Positions 1 to 19,871 of a stretch of 20,000 nucleotides of DNA are shown here, piece by piece. The DNA is taken from IMG/VR virus record IMGVR_UViG_3300027741_000054, one strand, 5' to 3'. Source of the stretch: an uncultured virus (IMG/VR IMGVR_UViG_3300027741_000054) (taxonomy: Duplodnaviria; Heunggongvirae; Uroviricota; Caudoviricetes). Below the pieces are notes generated by a model. It did no database searches. It was not told the origin of the DNA and saw only the letters and a list, made by a program, of their open reading frames with translations. The translations under genes and the position numbers were made by a program. Position 1 is the stretch's first letter; each line of letters begins with the position of its first letter.

Positions 1-1000
1 TATTCTGATCCATCAAACGTTTTGCAATCTCAATATTCTGAGCATCAAACGCCTGCAAAGCTTGAATAGATTCAGCTTTGTTGGCTTCAAACATAATCCG
101 ACGTTTTTTATTGACGTACTCTGTGGTAGATTTTGCTTCTTCGCTTGCATACTTGGGATCGTTTGTAAGTTCGTCCCACTTCTTTTGGTAATCTGGAATC
201 AACTGACCTAAGTTTGCTCTGTCCTCAAACTCACCCAAAGATGTTCCCAGTTCTGACTTTAAATAGTCATCATGTCTTTTAGCAACTGATTGCGTAACTG
301 TTGACAAAGAAGCTGCAAGTTTTTCGTCGCGGTTACCTAAAGCCATATAACGTTTATTGACGTCATCAATTTTATTTCGCAAAGCCTCGGGGCTTAAACC
401 ATCAACTTTTGTAAAGTTAATTTCGTTGATAAGGTCAATCGCTTGGCCTTGAGTTTTAACATTTGTACGATCTTGATCTAATTGACGTTTTGTCGAAACT
501 AGGGACATAGCATTCTTGTATACGTCGTTCCGTTGTTTAGAACTAAGAATAGATCCGGCCATTTTGTTCGTCCATTCAATAAGTTTGGTAGGGTCATCGC
601 TTTCAAGAGCTATTCTTCCCTCGTTCTCCATTGTGCTGGCAGCAAGATCCTGTTCCCGATCCGATTGTTTTTGTTCGAGATCTTGTAGAGTTTTAAGTTG
701 GTCCCACTTAAACTTGCGTTCGTCTAAATCCCTGTCCAAAGCTTTGGACTGTGCGGCTGCTTGCGCTCTAACCATTTCGCTAGCATTTTGAGCATCGGCT
801 GCCGCAATCCGAGCCGTATTAATCTGAGCTTCTTGAGCTCGGTTTGCAGCCTGTTGGTCTAACTGGGCATAAGACAAGGCCAGTCTATTTTGCTCTTGTT
901 GATCTTGTTGAAACAATTGTTGTTTCTTCAAGTAGTTTTCACGCAAATCGCCAATGATTCCGCGAACCTGGTTCACATAGTCTGGAGCTACTGGTGTCAT
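1..1000 (-). CDS. Probable internal virion (ejection) protein, coiled-coil rich; 3' end runs off the window
   Basis: Not in the ORF track. ATG at 1000, 3 nt after the stop of 1004..2467; my translation stays open to the edge (MTPVAPDYVNQVRGIIGDLRENYLKKQQLFQQDQQEQ...RLMDQN). Q/A/E-rich and helical-looking; function inferred from position after the tail genes. Confidence 0.7.
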   Translation of the reverse strand, partial: MTPVAPDYVNQVRGIIGDLRENYLKKQQLFQQDQQEQNRLALSYAQLDQQAANRAQEAQINTARIAAADAQNASEMVRAQAAAQSKALDRDLDERKFKWDQLKTLQDLEQKQSDREQDLAASTMENEGRIALESDDPTKLIEWTNKMAGSILSSKQRNDVYKNAMSLVSTKRQLDQDRTNVKTQGQAIDLINEINFTKVDGLSPEALRNKIDDVNKRYMALGNRDEKLAASLSTVTQSVAKRHDDYLKSELGTSLGEFEDRANLGQLIPDYQKKWDELTNDPKYASEEAKSTTEYVNKKRRIMFEANKAESIQALQAFDAQNIEIAKRLMDQN

Positions 1001-12120: not shown

Positions 12121-12696
12121 TTAAACCGCATCTAGTTCATAACCCGACATTATACAAGAACTACTGAGTGTTGTATAGGGTGTTGCTCCGCCGGAGACGA
12201 ATGCAATAGTAATTCTACAGTTAATAACTTGTCCGGCTGAGACTACTCCGCGGGCTGTTGCAGAGGAGGAACTGCCAGTCCTAACCCAATATCCAGCTAC
12301 TAGGGGGGATGGAAAGGTTAAGCCACCAAAATTAAAAGTATTGGATAGTTGATTCGTAGAGCCAGTTCCTGTGCCTCTAAAAAGCTGAACTGTGGGTAGA
12401 GTTGTAGCTGTTGACCCCACTACGGTATTTAAGGTATACGTAACATCTTGAATTACAAAACGTTTTCCAATCGGAACTGTGTAGACGGGGGTATTAGTAT
12501 TTAACGAATCAAGAAGATTTAGGGCAACTGTAATAACTTTAAAATTCTCTGCACCGGAAGGGCCGGGAGGTCCTTGTGGGCCGGGAGGTCCTTGTGGGCC
12601 GGGAACAGCGGAAGCCGCGGCAATTTGAGCTTCCGTCAAACCTGTTGAAAGAACATTTCGATCTCGAGTTGGATTGTTAACGTCAGCTAAACTCAT
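12121..12696 (-). CDS. Collagen-segment structural protein with C-terminal beta-rich domain (191 aa)
   Basis: GPQGPPGPQGPPGPSG followed by a beta-rich domain (VYTVPIGKRFVIQDV...); ATGA overlap with the nuclease gene. Confidence 0.7.
   Translation of the reverse strand: MSLADVNNPTRDRNVLSTGLTEAQIAAASAVPGPQGPPGPQGPPGPSGAENFKVITVALNLLDSLNTNTPVYTVPIGKRFVIQDVTYTLNTVVGSTATTLPTVQLFRGTGTGSTNQLSNTFNFGGLTFPSPLVAGYWVRTGSSSSATARGVVSAGQVINCRITIAFVSGGATPYTTLSSSCIMSGYELDAV
12560..12604. repeat. Perfect 18-bp tandem repeat, 2.5 copies (gggccgggaggtccttgt), encoding collagen triplets
   Basis: Directly visible at 12560-12577, 12578-12595 and 12596-12604. Confidence 0.95.
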
Positions 12697-13094
12697 TTAT
12701 GTGAAGCTCCTCTCAACACATTCCAATTGTCGCGCCATTTACAGTTAGGTTCAAGATAAATCGACTTTGTGCGGGGAAGTTTTTCTCTTGGTATAATGAA
12801 CAACGCGTCCAGAGTTGTGTGATAAAATATAAAAATATCGCAGTCTATTTTAGAGTATAACCTTTTTTCCATATGCCCAAAACCTGGACCTCTTATCGCA
12901 AAAAACTTTAACTTCCTACGTCGGCAATCTTCATTTCCAATAGTAGTTTTAACCTGTACCCGCGCCATATTTCCCTTCCAATCTGTAACTAAATCATACC
13001 CGTCATCGTAAATGGGCATACTCACAAGAAAACCTTGTTCCATCAATTTAGTGCAAACCTTCTGTACTCCTATTGCTCCTAGTTTAATACTCAT
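12693..13094 (-). CDS. PD-(D/E)XK endonuclease, PDDEXK_5 / I-Ssp6803I-like, free-standing (133 aa)
   Basis: Pattern 'G..VSMP..D..YDLV.D......RVQVKT' and 'YSKIDCDIFIFY'. Start set at ATG 13094 from the ATGA overlap with the endolysin stop. Confidence 0.75.
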   Translation of the reverse strand: MSIKLGAIGVQKVCTKLMEQGFLVSMPIYDDGYDLVTDWKGNMARVQVKTTIGNEDCRRRKLKFFAIRGPGFGHMEKRLYSKIDCDIFIFYHTTLDALFIIPREKLPRTKSIYLEPNCKWRDNWNVLRGASHK

Positions 13095-13633
13095 AACCAG
13101 TTCCTTGCGAGCATTGTACACAATGGTCGACGCTTGCGATAGACCCCATCCCCCTCTCGACTGCCATTATCGTTTGTATTACCTTCTATCGTAACTGCCA
13201 TCTTGCCCTCAATTCGCTCTATAAGCCCCGTGTGAGCCACCCTACGTAAGCTTTGGAAGTATATGCCAAAAGCGTCAGCGGGGCCCGGGGACACGCCTTT
13301 ACCGCGATCCCAAGTGGGTTTAACGACAAAGGCCGGACTCCAAGCGGAACGGGGGAAAGGATTGGACTTCTTGCCGAAAGCCTTGTCTCCTACATAGACA
13401 ACCCAAGCCGCGCACCAAGGAGCACGACTACCTTCTAATCCAACTGTGGCTAAAATCTCGTCCACCACGGCCCCGGAGTTTCCAGGTTCTTCTCGGAGTC
13501 CGATCGTATTTCTGGCAACTTCCATAAGGCTTTCCACTCTTGCTCCTCGCGGTAGTACGACTCCCTGAGCAACTCCCTCTCCGGCACCCAGCAAAGATAG
13601 AGATGCCAAAGCCAGCGCATAAATTATCCACAT
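13091..13633 (-). CDS. CHAP-domain endolysin with N-terminal hydrophobic signal/SAR-like segment (180 aa)
   Basis: 'IGLREEPGNSG', 'PWCAAWV' (catalytic Cys), 'HTGLIE' (His), 'TIEGNT'. Hydrophobic N-terminus MWIIYALALASLSLLGAG; overlaps the holin stop by 10 nt. Confidence 0.85.
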   Translation of the reverse strand: MWIIYALALASLSLLGAGEGVAQGVVLPRGARVESLMEVARNTIGLREEPGNSGAVVDEILATVGLEGSRAPWCAAWVVYVGDKAFGKKSNPFPRSAWSPAFVVKPTWDRGKGVSPGPADAFGIYFQSLRRVAHTGLIERIEGKMAVTIEGNTNDNGSREGDGVYRKRRPLCTMLARNWL

Positions 13634-16662: not shown

Positions 16663-16688
16663 AAAATAGAGTTTGTAAAAGAGTATGA

Positions 16689-16715
16689 TCCCCCGGGGGA
16701 TAGAACCCCGGGGGA
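16689..16715 (-). terminator. GC-rich hairpin after the capsid/head-fibre genes; probable leaky terminator or mRNA 3' stabiliser
   Basis: 10-bp stem tcccccgggg / ccccggggga with a 7-nt loop, 11 nt after the stop at 16727, followed by a weak interrupted U-tract (UCAUACUCUUUU). Confidence 0.65.
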
Positions 16716-16726
16716 CCAATTAGTTA

Positions 16727-16979: not shown

Positions 16980-18374
16980 TTAGCTAACGTAGTCAAGGCT
17001 GATGGCAGGCCGTGTGTGCAGAACGACATAGCCGTACTGCGGGAACACGGGCCGAGCGCCACTGGCTACAACACCGCGAAAATACCCGACATTACCATCT
17101 GGGTTATTCTCTCGATCCAAGATGTTAACCCATTTGAACTCACCACGGTAGTTCTGGGGGTTGAAACCCATCTTGCTGTCAGTCGACATCGGAGTAGGCA
17201 CCACGGAACGATATACATCTTGGTGGAAGATGTAGCTGATTTCGTAGGATGCCGTCTCGTATGCGGGGTTAATGTTGTAGGCCGTACCCTTGGTCGTGGT
17301 CTCCTTACGAAAAGGATAAATACGGATCAAGTTCTGCGGAGACGAATTATACGTCATAAACCGCGGAGGATACGGGTCAATTGCGTGGTAGAAGCCACCG
17401 TAAGAACGCTCAATACCAAGAGGGGTGAGCAATTCATTCGGCTTGGCATACCGGAAATCCTGTCGGATGTCGGCATTCAAGCGAATGAGGTTCTCGCTGG
17501 TTTCAGCACCGCAAATCAACATGAACACCGGGGCTCCGTTTTCACGGCCCATGGCGTTAGTACCCGCGCCGTCGCGGATAAGTTTCATGTAGAGCCGTTT
17601 CAGGATGCCCTGAGTCAGCTGGCTCTGCGGAAGATTCGCCGCAGTGATTGATCCCGAAGCAGCCGTAGCAACGCCGTTAACTACAGCGGTGTAAACGACT
17701 TTTGCATCACCAGTAGTGGTAGAAGTGGAAGCCACAATACCGTTAGCAACAGTGCTGGGGTAAACAAGGTTTCCTTCATTTGCAACTGCTTTGGTGTACA
17801 GATTCCGATAACGGTCCTGCCAAACCAAGGAAGTCGACTCAGTGAGGACATCCATGATGTTGGAGAGCTGTTCCCGGCGTTTCACTGCGAAGCGCAAGTC
17901 TTCCAGCGAGATATCGGGGGAGTCAACCGAAGCCCATTCCAGGCTGTACTGACGGAGTTTCTGCCCGAAGGTAACTCCGCTCAATTTTGCTGGGAGGACG
18001 TTTCCAGTTGAAGAACTGGATGCTACGGGTAACCCGTCGCCAGCTGTACTGACAGCCTGCGTAAAGGGGTTAAAGCCTTGGTAGTCTTGTGAGACCTGAT
18101 TGGATCCCAAAGTTCTCCACCCGGTTCCTGCATCTTGCTTAATGTCATTGGCTGTATAACCAACTGTGGTATCAGCGGCAGTGGCCAATATGCTGGAAGG
18201 ATAGAAACGTTCGAAGGTGACCGAACTGATCACATCGCCCATCTCCTCGGGGAAGGTTTCTTGCTTGGTCAGTTTGAGCCAAGCGGAGGTGTCGATCGTC
18301 CGGCGATAAATTTCCGGTCCGATACGACCCGCTTCTTTTACAAGAAGCTGTTGAATCGAGTACGTAGTAGACAT
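16980..18374 (-). CDS. Major capsid protein (464 aa)
   Basis: Follows the scaffold-like gene, has its own promoter and a downstream hairpin, and shows codon bias with a long antisense shadow ORF. Motifs (SPDISLEDLRF, SQLTQGILKRLY, NPQNYRGEFKWVNI) are recalled from capsid proteins of uncultured aquatic phages. Confidence 0.8.
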   Translation of the reverse strand: MSTTYSIQQLLVKEAGRIGPEIYRRTIDTSAWLKLTKQETFPEEMGDVISSVTFERFYPSSILATAADTTVGYTANDIKQDAGTGWRTLGSNQVSQDYQGFNPFTQAVSTAGDGLPVASSSSTGNVLPAKLSGVTFGQKLRQYSLEWASVDSPDISLEDLRFAVKRREQLSNIMDVLTESTSLVWQDRYRNLYTKAVANEGNLVYPSTVANGIVASTSTTTGDAKVVYTAVVNGVATAASGSITAANLPQSQLTQGILKRLYMKLIRDGAGTNAMGRENGAPVFMLICGAETSENLIRLNADIRQDFRYAKPNELLTPLGIERSYGGFYHAIDPYPPRFMTYNSSPQNLIRIYPFRKETTTKGTAYNINPAYETASYEISYIFHQDVYRSVVPTPMSTDSKMGFNPQNYRGEFKWVNILDRENNPDGNVGYFRGVVASGARPVFPQYGYVVLHTRPAISLDYVS

Positions 18375-18394
18375 AGTAGTAGTTATTTCCTTTC

Positions 18395-18597
18395 AACCTT
18401 CCCCTGCTCACGCAAAGGGTAGGTTATGATTTATGATGATTACGCCAGCCCCTATCGAGGCTATCCGCTTTCACCACTTTTCAAAACTTTTCCCTGGCGG
18501 CATCCCAGAGCTTTTAATGCCCGAATTCTGCTAGACCGTCTCAATCTTTATAGGTCTTGTCTGGTAAGGATCTCAATCTTTATACCTGTACCGGACT
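18395..18597 (-). ncRNA. Candidate structured cis-regulatory RNA (5' leader of the capsid mRNA)
   Basis: Five consecutive stem-loops at 18559-18596, 18533-18557, 18499-18521, 18447-18462 (within CGCCAG/CUGGCG 18443-18499) and 18395-18425 (GUGA tetraloop), then AAAGGA SD at 18393..18388. Confidence 0.55.
18539..18584 (-). repeat. 14-bp direct repeat TATAAAGATTGAGA x2, 32-bp period
   Basis: Plus-strand tctcaatctttata at 18539-18552 and 18571-18584. Confidence 0.95.
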
Positions 18598-18602
18598 AGT
18601 TA

Positions 18603-18630
18603 AAAGTATCAACCGGATAGAACGTGTCAA
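18603..18630 (-). promoter_or_regulatory. sigma70-like extended -10 promoter for the capsid gene, TTGACA-N16-(TGa)TACTTT
   Basis: -35 TTGACA at 18630..18625 with AT-rich upstream sequence; -10 at 18608..18603 preceded by TGn; predicted +1 about 18597/18596. Confidence 0.65.
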
Positions 18631-18644
18631 TACTTTAATCAAAA

Positions 18645-19871
18645 TTATTTTAATCCGCGCTCCAAGGCTTCCAAGAACCCTAAATCAGCTGGTACATCTA
18701 CTGCTGATTCCTTTGATCCGCCAGAAGAAGGTAGGCTAGATCTAAGATCTTTAGCCAGCTGTTCCAGCTCGGAAATACGAGACTGCGTTTTACTTACATA
18801 GTCTTGGAATACGTTCATTACCACTGGCATAGCAGCGGCATTAAACGTTAATCTAGCTTTTGAACGAGAATCAAGTTCGGTATTTTCAATATCCAAAGCC
18901 TGCTTTTGAATGTTTTGAATCGTATTATTCCACTGTTCATTTCCCTCAATAGGACGTAAAAGGGCGTTTTCTTTCTGCATATTCTCCCACTCACTTTGAT
19001 AAGCAGTTTGAATTTCGGCTTGTGTTCTCTTCTGAAACGCTTCTTGTTGCTGTTTTTCCTCGGATTCAATCAACTGCAAAACGGTATTAACGTCTTTAGT
19101 TAGAATATCTCTGCGAGCAAATACTTTGTGAAGTTCTTCGGCTTTGTTTCGAACAGCAAGGGAATCAACGGGGTCAAAAGCGCTGGTTGCCTCTTTTAGT
19201 AATGCCCTACGTTTAGCTGGATCGGATTCAGCCATGGCAACATACAGATTGCGGGGATCGATGTTTTCATAAAGAGCGGCAATATCAGCCACTTCTTTTT
19301 GCAAACTTGTTAAAGGCTCGGTAACGGCCTGTTTGTACTCGCGAGTTGATTCAAGTCTTGAAAACTTTAATTCGTTCTCATACTCGTCTCGTTCCGACTT
19401 AAGAGTGTCTAGCTGGCTTTGCAAGCTGGCTTGTTCAACGGAAGTGTTGGAGGTATCCGACATCTTTGTCTCAAGATCTTTAAGTTTTGCTCGGGCGTCA
19501 CGCAAATCTTTGGTAAGTCGCGCCCAAGCTGTTTGAGCTTCAGGCTTTAAATTTTCAGGCGTTTTGATGTCTAGGTCTAAATCCAAATCCTTCTTGGAAT
19601 CAATCAAGCTCTCTTCTTTTCCGGTCAAGCGTTTTGTGAGGATATCAAGAGGATTGGTTTTTTCGGAGGCATCGCTTTTAGAATTAACAACTGGTTCTGA
19701 AGATTTTGCTACTTCAGGAGTAGAGATAGTGGTAGTCGGAGTTGTGGAAACCGATGGTGTTTCTGCCGCTTTATTAATAGATTCAAATCCTGCATCTACT
19801 GCGTCGGCAAGAGATACGAAGTCATTTCCCGAAGATGCTGGGGCTTGTGGTGTTGCTGTTGTTTCGCTCAT
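18645..19871 (-). CDS. Putative capsid scaffolding protein (408 aa)
   Basis: TAAGGA SD before ATG 19871 (MSETTATPQ...). S/T/P-rich disordered N-terminus, long acidic coiled coils, short C-terminal amphipathic helix (FLEALERGLK); directly upstream of the capsid gene. Confidence 0.7.
   Translation of the reverse strand: MSETTATPQAPASSGNDFVSLADAVDAGFESINKAAETPSVSTTPTTTISTPEVAKSSEPVVNSKSDASEKTNPLDILTKRLTGKEESLIDSKKDLDLDLDIKTPENLKPEAQTAWARLTKDLRDARAKLKDLETKMSDTSNTSVEQASLQSQLDTLKSERDEYENELKFSRLESTREYKQAVTEPLTSLQKEVADIAALYENIDPRNLYVAMAESDPAKRRALLKEATSAFDPVDSLAVRNKAEELHKVFARRDILTKDVNTVLQLIESEEKQQQEAFQKRTQAEIQTAYQSEWENMQKENALLRPIEGNEQWNNTIQNIQKQALDIENTELDSRSKARLTFNAAAMPVVMNVFQDYVSKTQSRISELEQLAKDLRSSLPSSGGSKESAVDVPADLGFLEALERGLK

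Follow-up and report, generated by a model that had tools for sequence, protein, structure and literature searches.

Two adjacent hairpins on the minus strand of a 20,000-nucleotide (nt) stretch of DNA from an uncultured virus (IMG/VR record IMGVR_UViG_3300027741_000054; the whole stretch is further called the window) form a real, structured RNA module. The module makes up the first 64 nt of an untranslated leader of approximately 220 nt, which precedes the gene of a probable major capsid protein. From 5′ to 3′, the leader region comprises a sigma-70-type promoter, the twin hairpins, a pseudoknot-like core, a long covarying hairpin and the Shine–Dalgarno (SD) sequence; the coordinates are listed in Table 1. 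A preliminary description, drawn up from the letters of the window alone, had reported the hairpin pair. The pair itself stands, but it is only the 5′ part of this larger structured leader.

Hairpin 1 pairs the arms GTCCGGTACAGG and CCTTACCAGAC around the loop TATAAAGATTGAGAT. After a single A at 18558, hairpin 2 follows, in which AGACC and GGTCT enclose the loop TATAAAGATTGAGAC. The two 15-nt loops, reading UAUAAAGAUUGAGAY in the window, are identical at 14 positions while the stems differ and each still pairs, as had been described, and both the minimum free energy structure and the centroid structure computed with RNAfold consist of exactly these two hairpins, at −14.6 kcal/mol. The exact 14-mer shared by the loops is present at only two sites in the window, both of them the leader loops, and a search allowing up to 3 mismatches gives 3 matches against 2.79 expected. 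Within the predicted capsid transcript, the loops have no Watson–Crick target beyond the level of shuffled loops: their best complementarity amounts to −7 to −8 kcal/mol, whereas shuffled loops pair more strongly (mean −9 to −10). This weak complementarity to their own transcript fits exposure of the loops to a partner.

The evidence that carries the structure is comparative. The capsid open reading frame (ORF) has 22 close loci in IMG/VR, at 71–88% identity, and a profile search yields 80 loci, down to 37% identity. Across the 22 close loci the intergenic stretch between promoter and start codon can be aligned with a mean column identity of 86%. From 21 of the 23 sequences, two exact duplicates being left out, RNAalifold predicts six helices (hairpin 1, hairpin 2, P3, P4, P5 and P6) with 51 pairs, 18 of which show compensatory changes. 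A second set combined the window, the loci of the profile search and IMG/VR loci found with a sequence pattern, giving 55 sequences with 40 distinct twin segments. With the loops held open, all 40 form both hairpin 1 (9–14 bp) and hairpin 2 (4–5 bp), and 74 of their 639 stem pairs are G-U. Because a G-U pair corresponds to an A-C mismatch in the complementary sequence, the covarying stems belong to RNA in the capsid sense and not to the opposite strand or to duplex DNA.

Covariation extends beyond the closest relatives, i.e., over clade 1, which includes the window, and clade 2, with capsid proteins that are 47–52% identical. In a joint alignment of 35 sequences from these two clades, 17 pairs were tested (three at the top of hairpin 1, four in hairpin 2, six in P3 and four in the proposed pseudoknot). 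Of the cells, 99.8% are paired, against 35–54% when the register is slid as a control; 9 of the 17 pairs have changed on both sides, and none of 500 shuffles scored as high. Hairpin 2 taken alone has 90% of its cells paired and three of five pairs doubly changed, again with none of 500 shuffles as high. The top three pairs of hairpin 1 flip from G-C to C-G between the clades, whose stems share no sequence yet pair. A test of hairpin 1 in one register over both clades gave 60.1% of cells paired, and 69.8% after a slide of −1. The failure of this test is due to a one-base bulge in clade 1, absent from clade 2, and it was replaced by folding each sequence separately and by the test of the top three pairs.

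Besides the pairing, the loop sequence itself is under selection. Among 20 distinct clade-1 sequences the mean pairwise identity of the two loops is 0.94 and 0.92, compared to 0.70 at the third positions of the first 60 capsid codons; the stem of hairpin 1 is 81% identical. In the relatives with twin loops, the flanks around the loops always pair and covary.

A survey of the window and 80 relatives (L036–L115; 81 sequences in all) identified twin loops in 46 of them, 39 being distinct. Clade 1 carries UAUAAAGAYUGARAY in both loops, while clade 2, together with L103, carries UAYAAAAAYGGAAGN in both. The overall consensus is UAYAAARAYKGARRN, and the two types differ at four positions. In 41 distinct leaders, from which one unrelated coding repeat had been removed, position 10 has U in both loops of 27 leaders and G in both loops of 14, position 14 has A in both loops of 27 and G in both loops of 14, and mixed combinations do not occur. 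Loop positions 7 and 13 also mostly agree between the two hairpins of a genome. Both loops have changed together between the clades, which is the pattern expected of tandem sites for one factor. The distance from loop to loop is less constant, with a period of 32 nt in 26 leaders, 33 in two, 34 in eight and 36 in five. The alternative that had been offered for the pair, a DNA operator with a period of 32 bp, was not borne out by these relatives.

Hairpin 1 begins where transcription is predicted to start. Judged from the spacing of TTGACA, TG and TACTTT, in which one base separates TG from the −10 hexamer in an extended −10 arrangement, the +1 position would be at approximately G18596, the first base of hairpin 1, which agrees with the preliminary description. 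In clades 1 and 2 alike, the predicted +1 coincides with the start of hairpin 1. GGTATTGACA and the promoter spacer are almost unchanged across the 23 sequences, and TTGACA is retained in more distant clades. A scan with consensus promoters did not list this promoter, because its −10 hexamer matches the consensus at only 3 of 6 positions. As a separate observation, the spacer CGTTCYAHCCGGTTGA (18609–18624, minus strand) hardly varies within clade 1, an unusual feature in a promoter of the sigma-70 type. It could mark the site of a DNA-binding regulator; TTGACAC and TTGATAC form a direct repeat here, 18 bp apart.

Downstream of the twin hairpins, the leader continues with the invariant core and helix P3. 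P3 covaries across clades, with four of six pairs altered on both sides and 100% of cells paired. A pseudoknot is possible in the core, between GGCA (18521–18518) and UGCC (18502–18499) in the loop of P3; this is a proposal on which covariation bears neither way, since the four pairs are invariant. Next, P4 encloses the long variable hairpin P5, and the RNAalifold consensus of both contains many compensatory pairs (e.g., UA:11 / CG:10 and AU:10 / GC:8). In clade 2 a pyrimidine-rich stretch takes the place of P6. The spacing between the SD sequence and the AUG is 10–14 nt in clade 1, which is rather long. A short ORF (18474–18503, minus strand; MPPG..., 10 codons) has its AUG within the loop GAUGCCG of P3 and contains PPG, a ribosome-stalling motif. 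This ORF was rejected because MPPG becomes MPAG or MPGE where P3 covaries (L090, L103) and because its length is not kept; it is read as a by-product of the RNA structure.

More distant relatives show that the leader is modular. Clade 3, with capsid proteins that are 42–45% identical, keeps the promoter, the core CGGGCAAYAAAAG...GAUGCCG, the covarying P3 and UGAAAGGA, and has no twin loops. Its 5′ module resembles the architecture of the core in a second copy, being a hairpin with a 7-nt loop that pairs with an upstream tetramer. In 10 distinct variants of this module all four pseudoknot pairs are kept (GGCG:CGCC in six, GUCG:CGAC in three and GGUG:CGCC in one), and by analogy the compensation from G-C to U-A supports the geometry proposed for the core pseudoknot. 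The leader of clade 4 is more diverged. In clade 3, a pseudoknot module occupies the place of the hairpins in front of a kept core.

The loop motif is restricted to one genomic site, the leader, in all five full-length records of clade 1 and all five of clade 2. A degenerate twin-loop pattern finds 62 stretches in the whole of IMG/VR, of which 53 are this leader and nine are coding or AT-rich repeats without stems. The species-representative bacterial and archaeal genomes contain 81 matches to the pattern, none with the stems or the core, and no prophage relatives were found among them. Scanning IMG/VR with the core pattern mostly gave chance matches (79 of 110 distinct ones lack P3) and revealed no further type of 5′ module. 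The 4227 covariance models of Rfam 15 have no match at gathering thresholds on the whole window, nor any at E ≤ 10 on 18300–18700; the preliminary description had likewise not recognised the motif as a known family. Among GenBank phages, there is no blastn match to the region and no tblastn match to the 464-amino-acid (aa) ORF or to two capsid homologues. Structured RNAs have been mined from the same IMG/VR collection, giving 10,006 candidates, five of them in front of genes of one capsid family (Fremin et al., 2023; PMC10690425). The motif strings and the sample numbers of six contigs are absent from those tables of that paper that were searched, and the leader may be listed among the 10,006 candidates (PMC10690425).

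One candidate 'third copy', TATAAAGAAAGAGA, at 17–19 kb from the leader in relatives, was rejected as an unrelated AT-rich stretch without stems between GGGTGGGGG boxes. The surroundings are a feature in their own right. At the genome ends of four relatives (L031–L034), a conserved non-coding region 17–19 kb upstream of the leader holds many GGGTGGGGG boxes on both strands around the AT-rich stretch; it may contain origin iterons, terminal-repeat signals or early virion-polymerase promoters.

Table 1. Elements of the capsid transcription unit in the window, listed in the direction of transcription.
Feature	Position	Strand	Description
Sigma-70-type promoter	18603..18630	−	−35 TTGACA 18630–18625; 16-nt spacer; TG 18611–18610; −10 TACTTT 18608–18603
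Hairpin 1	18559..18596	−	Arms 18596–18585 and 18569–18559; 15-nt loop UAUAAAGAUUGAGAU 18584–18570
Hairpin 2	18533..18557	−	Arms 18557–18553 and 18537–18533; 15-nt loop UAUAAAGAUUGAGAC 18552–18538
Invariant core	18492..18523	−	CGGGCA 18523–18518; P3 CUCUGG 18510–18505 and CCAGGG 18497–18492; loop GAUGCCG 18504–18498
P4 and P5	18423..18487	−	P4 GUUUUGA 18487–18481 with UCAUAAC 18429–18423, enclosing long variable hairpin P5
P6 hairpin	18401..18419	−	Directly upstream of the ribosome-binding site; clade 1 only; one-sided changes only
Presumed SD sequence GAAAGGA	18388..18394	−	UGAAAGGA retained in clades 1–3
Probable major capsid protein, 464 aa	16980..18374	−	HK97 fold, N4-like; predicted structure
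GC-rich hairpin	16686..16718	−	13 bp, 7-nt loop UUCUAUC; downstream of capsid gene and 76-aa ORF

The assignment of the 464-aa protein as a capsid protein comes from structure prediction. An AlphaFold model built from a deeper alignment reached a pLDDT of 61.5, which gives modest confidence (an alignment of 15 sequences gave a pLDDT of 42, which was too poor). Its best Foldseek matches in the Protein Data Bank (PDB) are all capsid proteins, led by those of the N4 family (Moo19, N4 and DEV), with E-values of 4e-4 to 7e-3 and probabilities up to 0.96, at TM scores of only 0.24–0.30. Neighbours of the protein in the Atlas carry Phage_capsid_3 (41% of the members of one cluster). The protein itself has no Pfam or PHROG match, a sequence-profile search of the PDB gave chance-level matches only, and its 353 metagenomic relatives include no informatively named protein. 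Counting against the capsid identity, three of 15 homologues match 'major tail protein' in a PHROG scan (best E 2.7e-6) and one matches 'major head protein' (E 0.0015). The tail-protein matches may come from a variable inserted domain. Two homologues (P0064 and P0065) are approximately 40 aa longer and contain an insertion of PF12195 (endosialidase beta-barrel); taken together with the tail-protein matches, this points to a capsid protein with an inserted, variable surface domain.

The phage is N4-like (Schitoviridae-like) in its gene layout, its putative giant virion RNA polymerase ORF and its capsid fold. Phages of this kind are marked by a giant gene for a virion RNA polymerase, terminal repeats on a genome of approximately 70 kb and a capsid fold of the N4 type. 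In a full relative of 67.3 kb with terminal repeats, genes for a terminase, a portal-sized protein of 768 aa and proteins of 97 and 414 aa are followed by the leader and the capsid gene. An ORF of 3892 aa lies farther on the same strand, and rIIA, rIIB, a DNA polymerase and a helicase are encoded as well. The full-length records measure 67–82 kb, several of them having direct terminal repeats. In the window, an ORF running off the low end (2–1000, minus strand) probably represents, to judge by position in the relative, the beginning of this giant, virion-RNA-polymerase-like gene of 3892 aa. In the middle of the structural operon (12693–13633, minus strand), an endolysin-like ORF (phrog_9589) is followed by a phrog_5018 protein, the counterpart of which in a relative has a PD-(D/E)XK nuclease domain.

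At the other end of the capsid unit, the GC-rich hairpin is retained with compensatory stem changes in 11 of 13 clade-1, 4 of 5 clade-2, 9 of 9 clade-3 and 3 of 7 clade-4 loci. It is probably the 3′ boundary of the capsid transcript, either as terminator or as 3′ stabiliser, and the capsid message appears to be bracketed by structured ends. In the window and in L001–L019 and L057–L114, the 7-nt loop of this hairpin always reads UUC[U/A/G]A[U/C]C, closed by G-C on a stem of 11–15 bp. It resembles the consensus of a tRNA T-loop on an acceptor-plus-T minihelix, and a tRNA-like role in 3′ processing or stabilisation is possible, instead of or besides that of a terminator; ARAGORN found no tRNA in the window. 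Four lake metatranscriptomes contain contigs that cover parts of the capsid gene and give no start, strand or level. In one of them the contigs match parts of the gene exactly. One contig covers the leader of a relative (18386–18556), and 18634–19400 is without contig coverage in all four.

The interpretation favoured here, tentatively and with a probability somewhat short of even, is that the module is a 5′-terminal pair of protective stems displaying two copies of a recognition loop to a putative, probably dimeric, factor. This factor would control the stability or translation of the capsid mRNA, in one direction or the other. To judge from its conservation, the sigma-70-type promoter would be a strong one at which host RNA polymerase begins transcription. 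The transcript then adopts the two adjacent hairpins in its first 64 nt, a fold shown by covariation, and by analogy the base-paired 5′ end may shield the message from decay that depends on the 5′ end. The two 15-nt loops would present a duplicate recognition element, to be bound in trans by a factor whose two binding surfaces are equal, in the simplest case a dimeric protein. Twin hairpins and pseudoknot-like core together would set the lifetime of the capsid message or the efficiency of its translation.

Several points weigh against this interpretation. Firstly, the preliminary description had suggested tandem sites for an RNA-binding protein, and while the parallel change of the loops supports this part, no candidate for the binding protein was found. 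Comparison of the gene content of five genomes with and five without the hairpins revealed no convincing hairpin-specific protein. Four clusters (a 113-aa protein, an Ogg-like glycosylase, rIIA and rIIB) are the only ones that occur in four of the five genomes with hairpins and are missing from all five that lack them, and the comparison is underpowered, as only seven clusters are common to all ten genomes. A Pfam scan of the 71 proteins of one full relative detected no known RNA-binding domain either. Secondly, the parallel change amounts to approximately one deep split, between clade 1 and clade 2 with L103, and may reflect a single event or short-tract gene conversion. Moreover, the twin hairpins are missing in clades 3 and 4, a plain stabiliser would not need conserved loops, and loops engaged in tertiary contacts within the leader would be conserved too. 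The hairpins end 139 nt upstream of GAAAGGA, and at approximately 150 nt from the ribosome-binding site direct occlusion of translation is unlikely. Furthermore, a lake metatranscriptome contig of one relative crosses the promoter, so that read-through transcripts or DNA in the RNA library are possible. As to the structure itself, the folding energy is ordinary when taken alone (z = −1.49, with 15 of 200 shuffles equally stable); thermodynamics is therefore insufficient by itself, and conservation carries the case.

A bolder version of the proposal, which must be called doubtful, takes one of two forms. Either the twin loops would be a tandem operator for a phage-encoded dimer, e.g., unassembled capsid or scaffold protein, that reports the status of assembly to the stability or translation of the capsid mRNA, or the 64-nt module would have evolved independently as a second RNA of the put type, reprogramming the host RNA polymerase for the late operon, approximately 28 kb long, of an N4-like phage. 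In both forms, the leader would be a modular RNA device, the 5′ module of which can be exchanged while the pseudoknot core stays fixed.

Among the rival explanations, a purely structural cis element is unlikely. The stems would protect the 5′ end and aid folding, and the loops would dock within the same RNA, by A-minor or loop–receptor contacts with the core or P5, so that no trans-acting factor is involved. The leader is indeed a large multi-helix RNA with an invariant core, and A-rich loops are typical elements of tertiary contacts. A possible intraloop pair between positions 3 and 14 follows U-A (54), U-G (22) and C-G (6), and the failure to find a binding protein by gene content or Pfam scan agrees with docking as well. 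However, clades 1 and 2 share an identical core though their loops differ at four positions, which means that a receptor in the core would not have changed along with them. A compensating change elsewhere in the leader was not seen between the clades when these were compared by eye, the loops lack a Watson–Crick target in the transcript, and clade 3 retains the core without the loops.

The main rival, itself quite unlikely, is a reading in which the nascent twin hairpins, perhaps together with the core, act as a put-type processive antitermination RNA. They would bind the transcribing host RNA polymerase and allow it to read through the hairpin behind the capsid unit and along the late operon up to the presumed giant virion-RNA-polymerase gene. 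The format of the module agrees with this, as its 64 nt with two stem-loops one base apart start at the predicted +1. All large ORFs downstream in the window lie on the same strand as the leader, the same strand of the relative continues to the 3892-aa ORF, and a strong terminator-like hairpin follows the capsid unit. An RNA that acts on the polymerase directly would also accord with the lack of an RNA-binding domain in the Pfam scan of the relative. Yet two near-identical conserved loops suggest a partner with two-fold symmetry, and we know of no two-fold symmetric surface on RNA polymerase. Clade 3 has the same operon and 3′ hairpin, but no twin hairpins. In addition, a polymerase that ignores the 3′ hairpin would forfeit the usual purpose of a terminator behind a capsid gene, i.e., an excess of capsid message.

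Very unlikely is a decoy, or sponge, in which the abundant late capsid leader titrates a host RNA-binding protein by means of the two loops. Two like loops exposed on a transcript that is probably more abundant than any other late one would suit such a role, and a phage partner was not found in the Pfam scan of one relative. CsrA/Rsm sites have the consensus ANGGA in a hairpin loop, and the clade-2 loops contain A(C/U)GGAAG, which resembles it. The loops of the window read UUGAGA, however, and are without the GGA that is the hallmark of CsrA sites, and nothing separates a decoy from an ordinary regulator site.

Finally, an element at the DNA level (an operator pair, an internal promoter made of TTGAGA in loop 1 and TATAAA in loop 2 at 18 bp, a sigma-dependent pause, or a coding sequence) is largely refuted: the likeness of TATAAA and TTGAGA to −10 and −35 hexamers, the period of 32 bp or approximately three helical turns and the unusually conserved promoter spacer of clade 1 favour it, but G-U pairs and compensatory stem changes are signatures of RNA, the clade-2 loops read CGGAAG or UGGAAG and have lost the −35-like hexamer, and paired operators or a sigma-70 promoter would have fixed spacing and no need of pairing, while here the flanks pair and the variable spacing (32, 33, 34 or 36 nt) speaks against phased DNA sites and against a TTGAGA-N18-TATAAA promoter. 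With only two copies of the motif per genome, it is not a general phage promoter. Coding across the loops, whether sense or antisense, was rejected as well, because the period shifts by 1, 2 and 4 nt, differences that are not multiples of three, and no reading frame spans both loops.

No product of a phage infection is made in larger amounts than the capsid protein, and to our knowledge almost nothing has been established on the control of capsid genes at the RNA level in tailed phages. The leader provides a well-supported, modular structured RNA without an Rfam family, and its two exposed, co-evolving loops lend themselves directly to pull-downs and mutant tests. The N4-like phages that carry it form an abundant, uncultured branch from fresh water; as this branch has no GenBank relative, the leader may serve as a sequence marker for the group. 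If the tandem-operator reading is true, feedback on a capsid gene through a defined RNA operator would be known for the first time from a tailed double-stranded DNA phage, and if the put-like reading is true, antitermination by RNA only would extend beyond HK022. In itself the leader is of moderate interest, which would rise if a partner or a role in antitermination were shown.

Among known systems, the nut sites of phage lambda have boxA in front of boxB, a short stem closed by a GNRA-like pentaloop; 18533–18600 contains 15-nt loops and no such pentaloop hairpin. The thrS leader of E. coli has two mimics of the anticodon arm that are bound by the ThrRS dimer, beside the ribosome-binding site. 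Like this leader and the dual-site leaders of CsrA/RsmE, the capsid leader has two hairpins with the same loop in one 5′ leader, in an arrangement that a homodimer could read. It differs from thrS in that the loops are 15 nt long instead of being 7-nt anticodon loops and in that the hairpins are approximately 150 nt away from the ribosome-binding site. It differs from the CsrA/RsmE leaders in that there are no GGA penta- or hexaloops, the loops of the window being without GGA, although those of clade 2 contain GGAAG. The E. coli ompA and T7 gene 10 leaders have 5′-terminal stabiliser hairpins that do not need a particular loop sequence. They share with the capsid leader a stem-loop within a few bases of the (here predicted) 5′ end of a very highly expressed message, and few 5′ bases would remain unpaired if transcription starts at 18596–18597, as the promoter predicts; a strong 3′ hairpin accompanies the stem-loop here. 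In contrast to these stabilisers, the loops are duplicated and more conserved than the stems.

The EAR RNA is located between genes rather than at a 5′ end and has its own Rfam model, in which it differs from the capsid leader, predicted to be 5′-terminal and without an Rfam match. EAR of the Bacillus eps operon resembles this leader in being a structured, cis-acting pseudoknot RNA of a long operon. In the leader of T4 gene 32, it is the message's own protein that binds. This leader and the candidates tabulated by Fremin et al. (2023; PMC10690425) are, like the present one, structured, pseudoknot-type 5′ leaders of phage genes for structural or replication proteins that are recognized by comparative genomics.

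The put RNAs of HK022 are described in PMC9378689 as RNAs of approximately 70 nt with two stem-loops, with putL just downstream of its promoter, that act over at least 10 kb; their stems are unlike each other, and they work through stems and bulges. Typical of putL and putR are a triplex in stem I, a bulge in stem II and terminator read-through that depends on the RNA. PMC11658703 describes put, EAR, canT and conAn2 as RNA antiterminators of long operons, up to approximately 30,000 nt. The capsid leader differs from putL and putR in its duplicated, conserved loops and in belonging to an N4-like instead of a lambdoid phage, the comparison being one of descriptions only (PMC9378689). It shares with them a module of approximately 64–70 nt with two nearly abutting stem-loops, placed directly after a promoter, here at the predicted start, and at the head of a long transcription unit (PMC9378689; PMC11658703).

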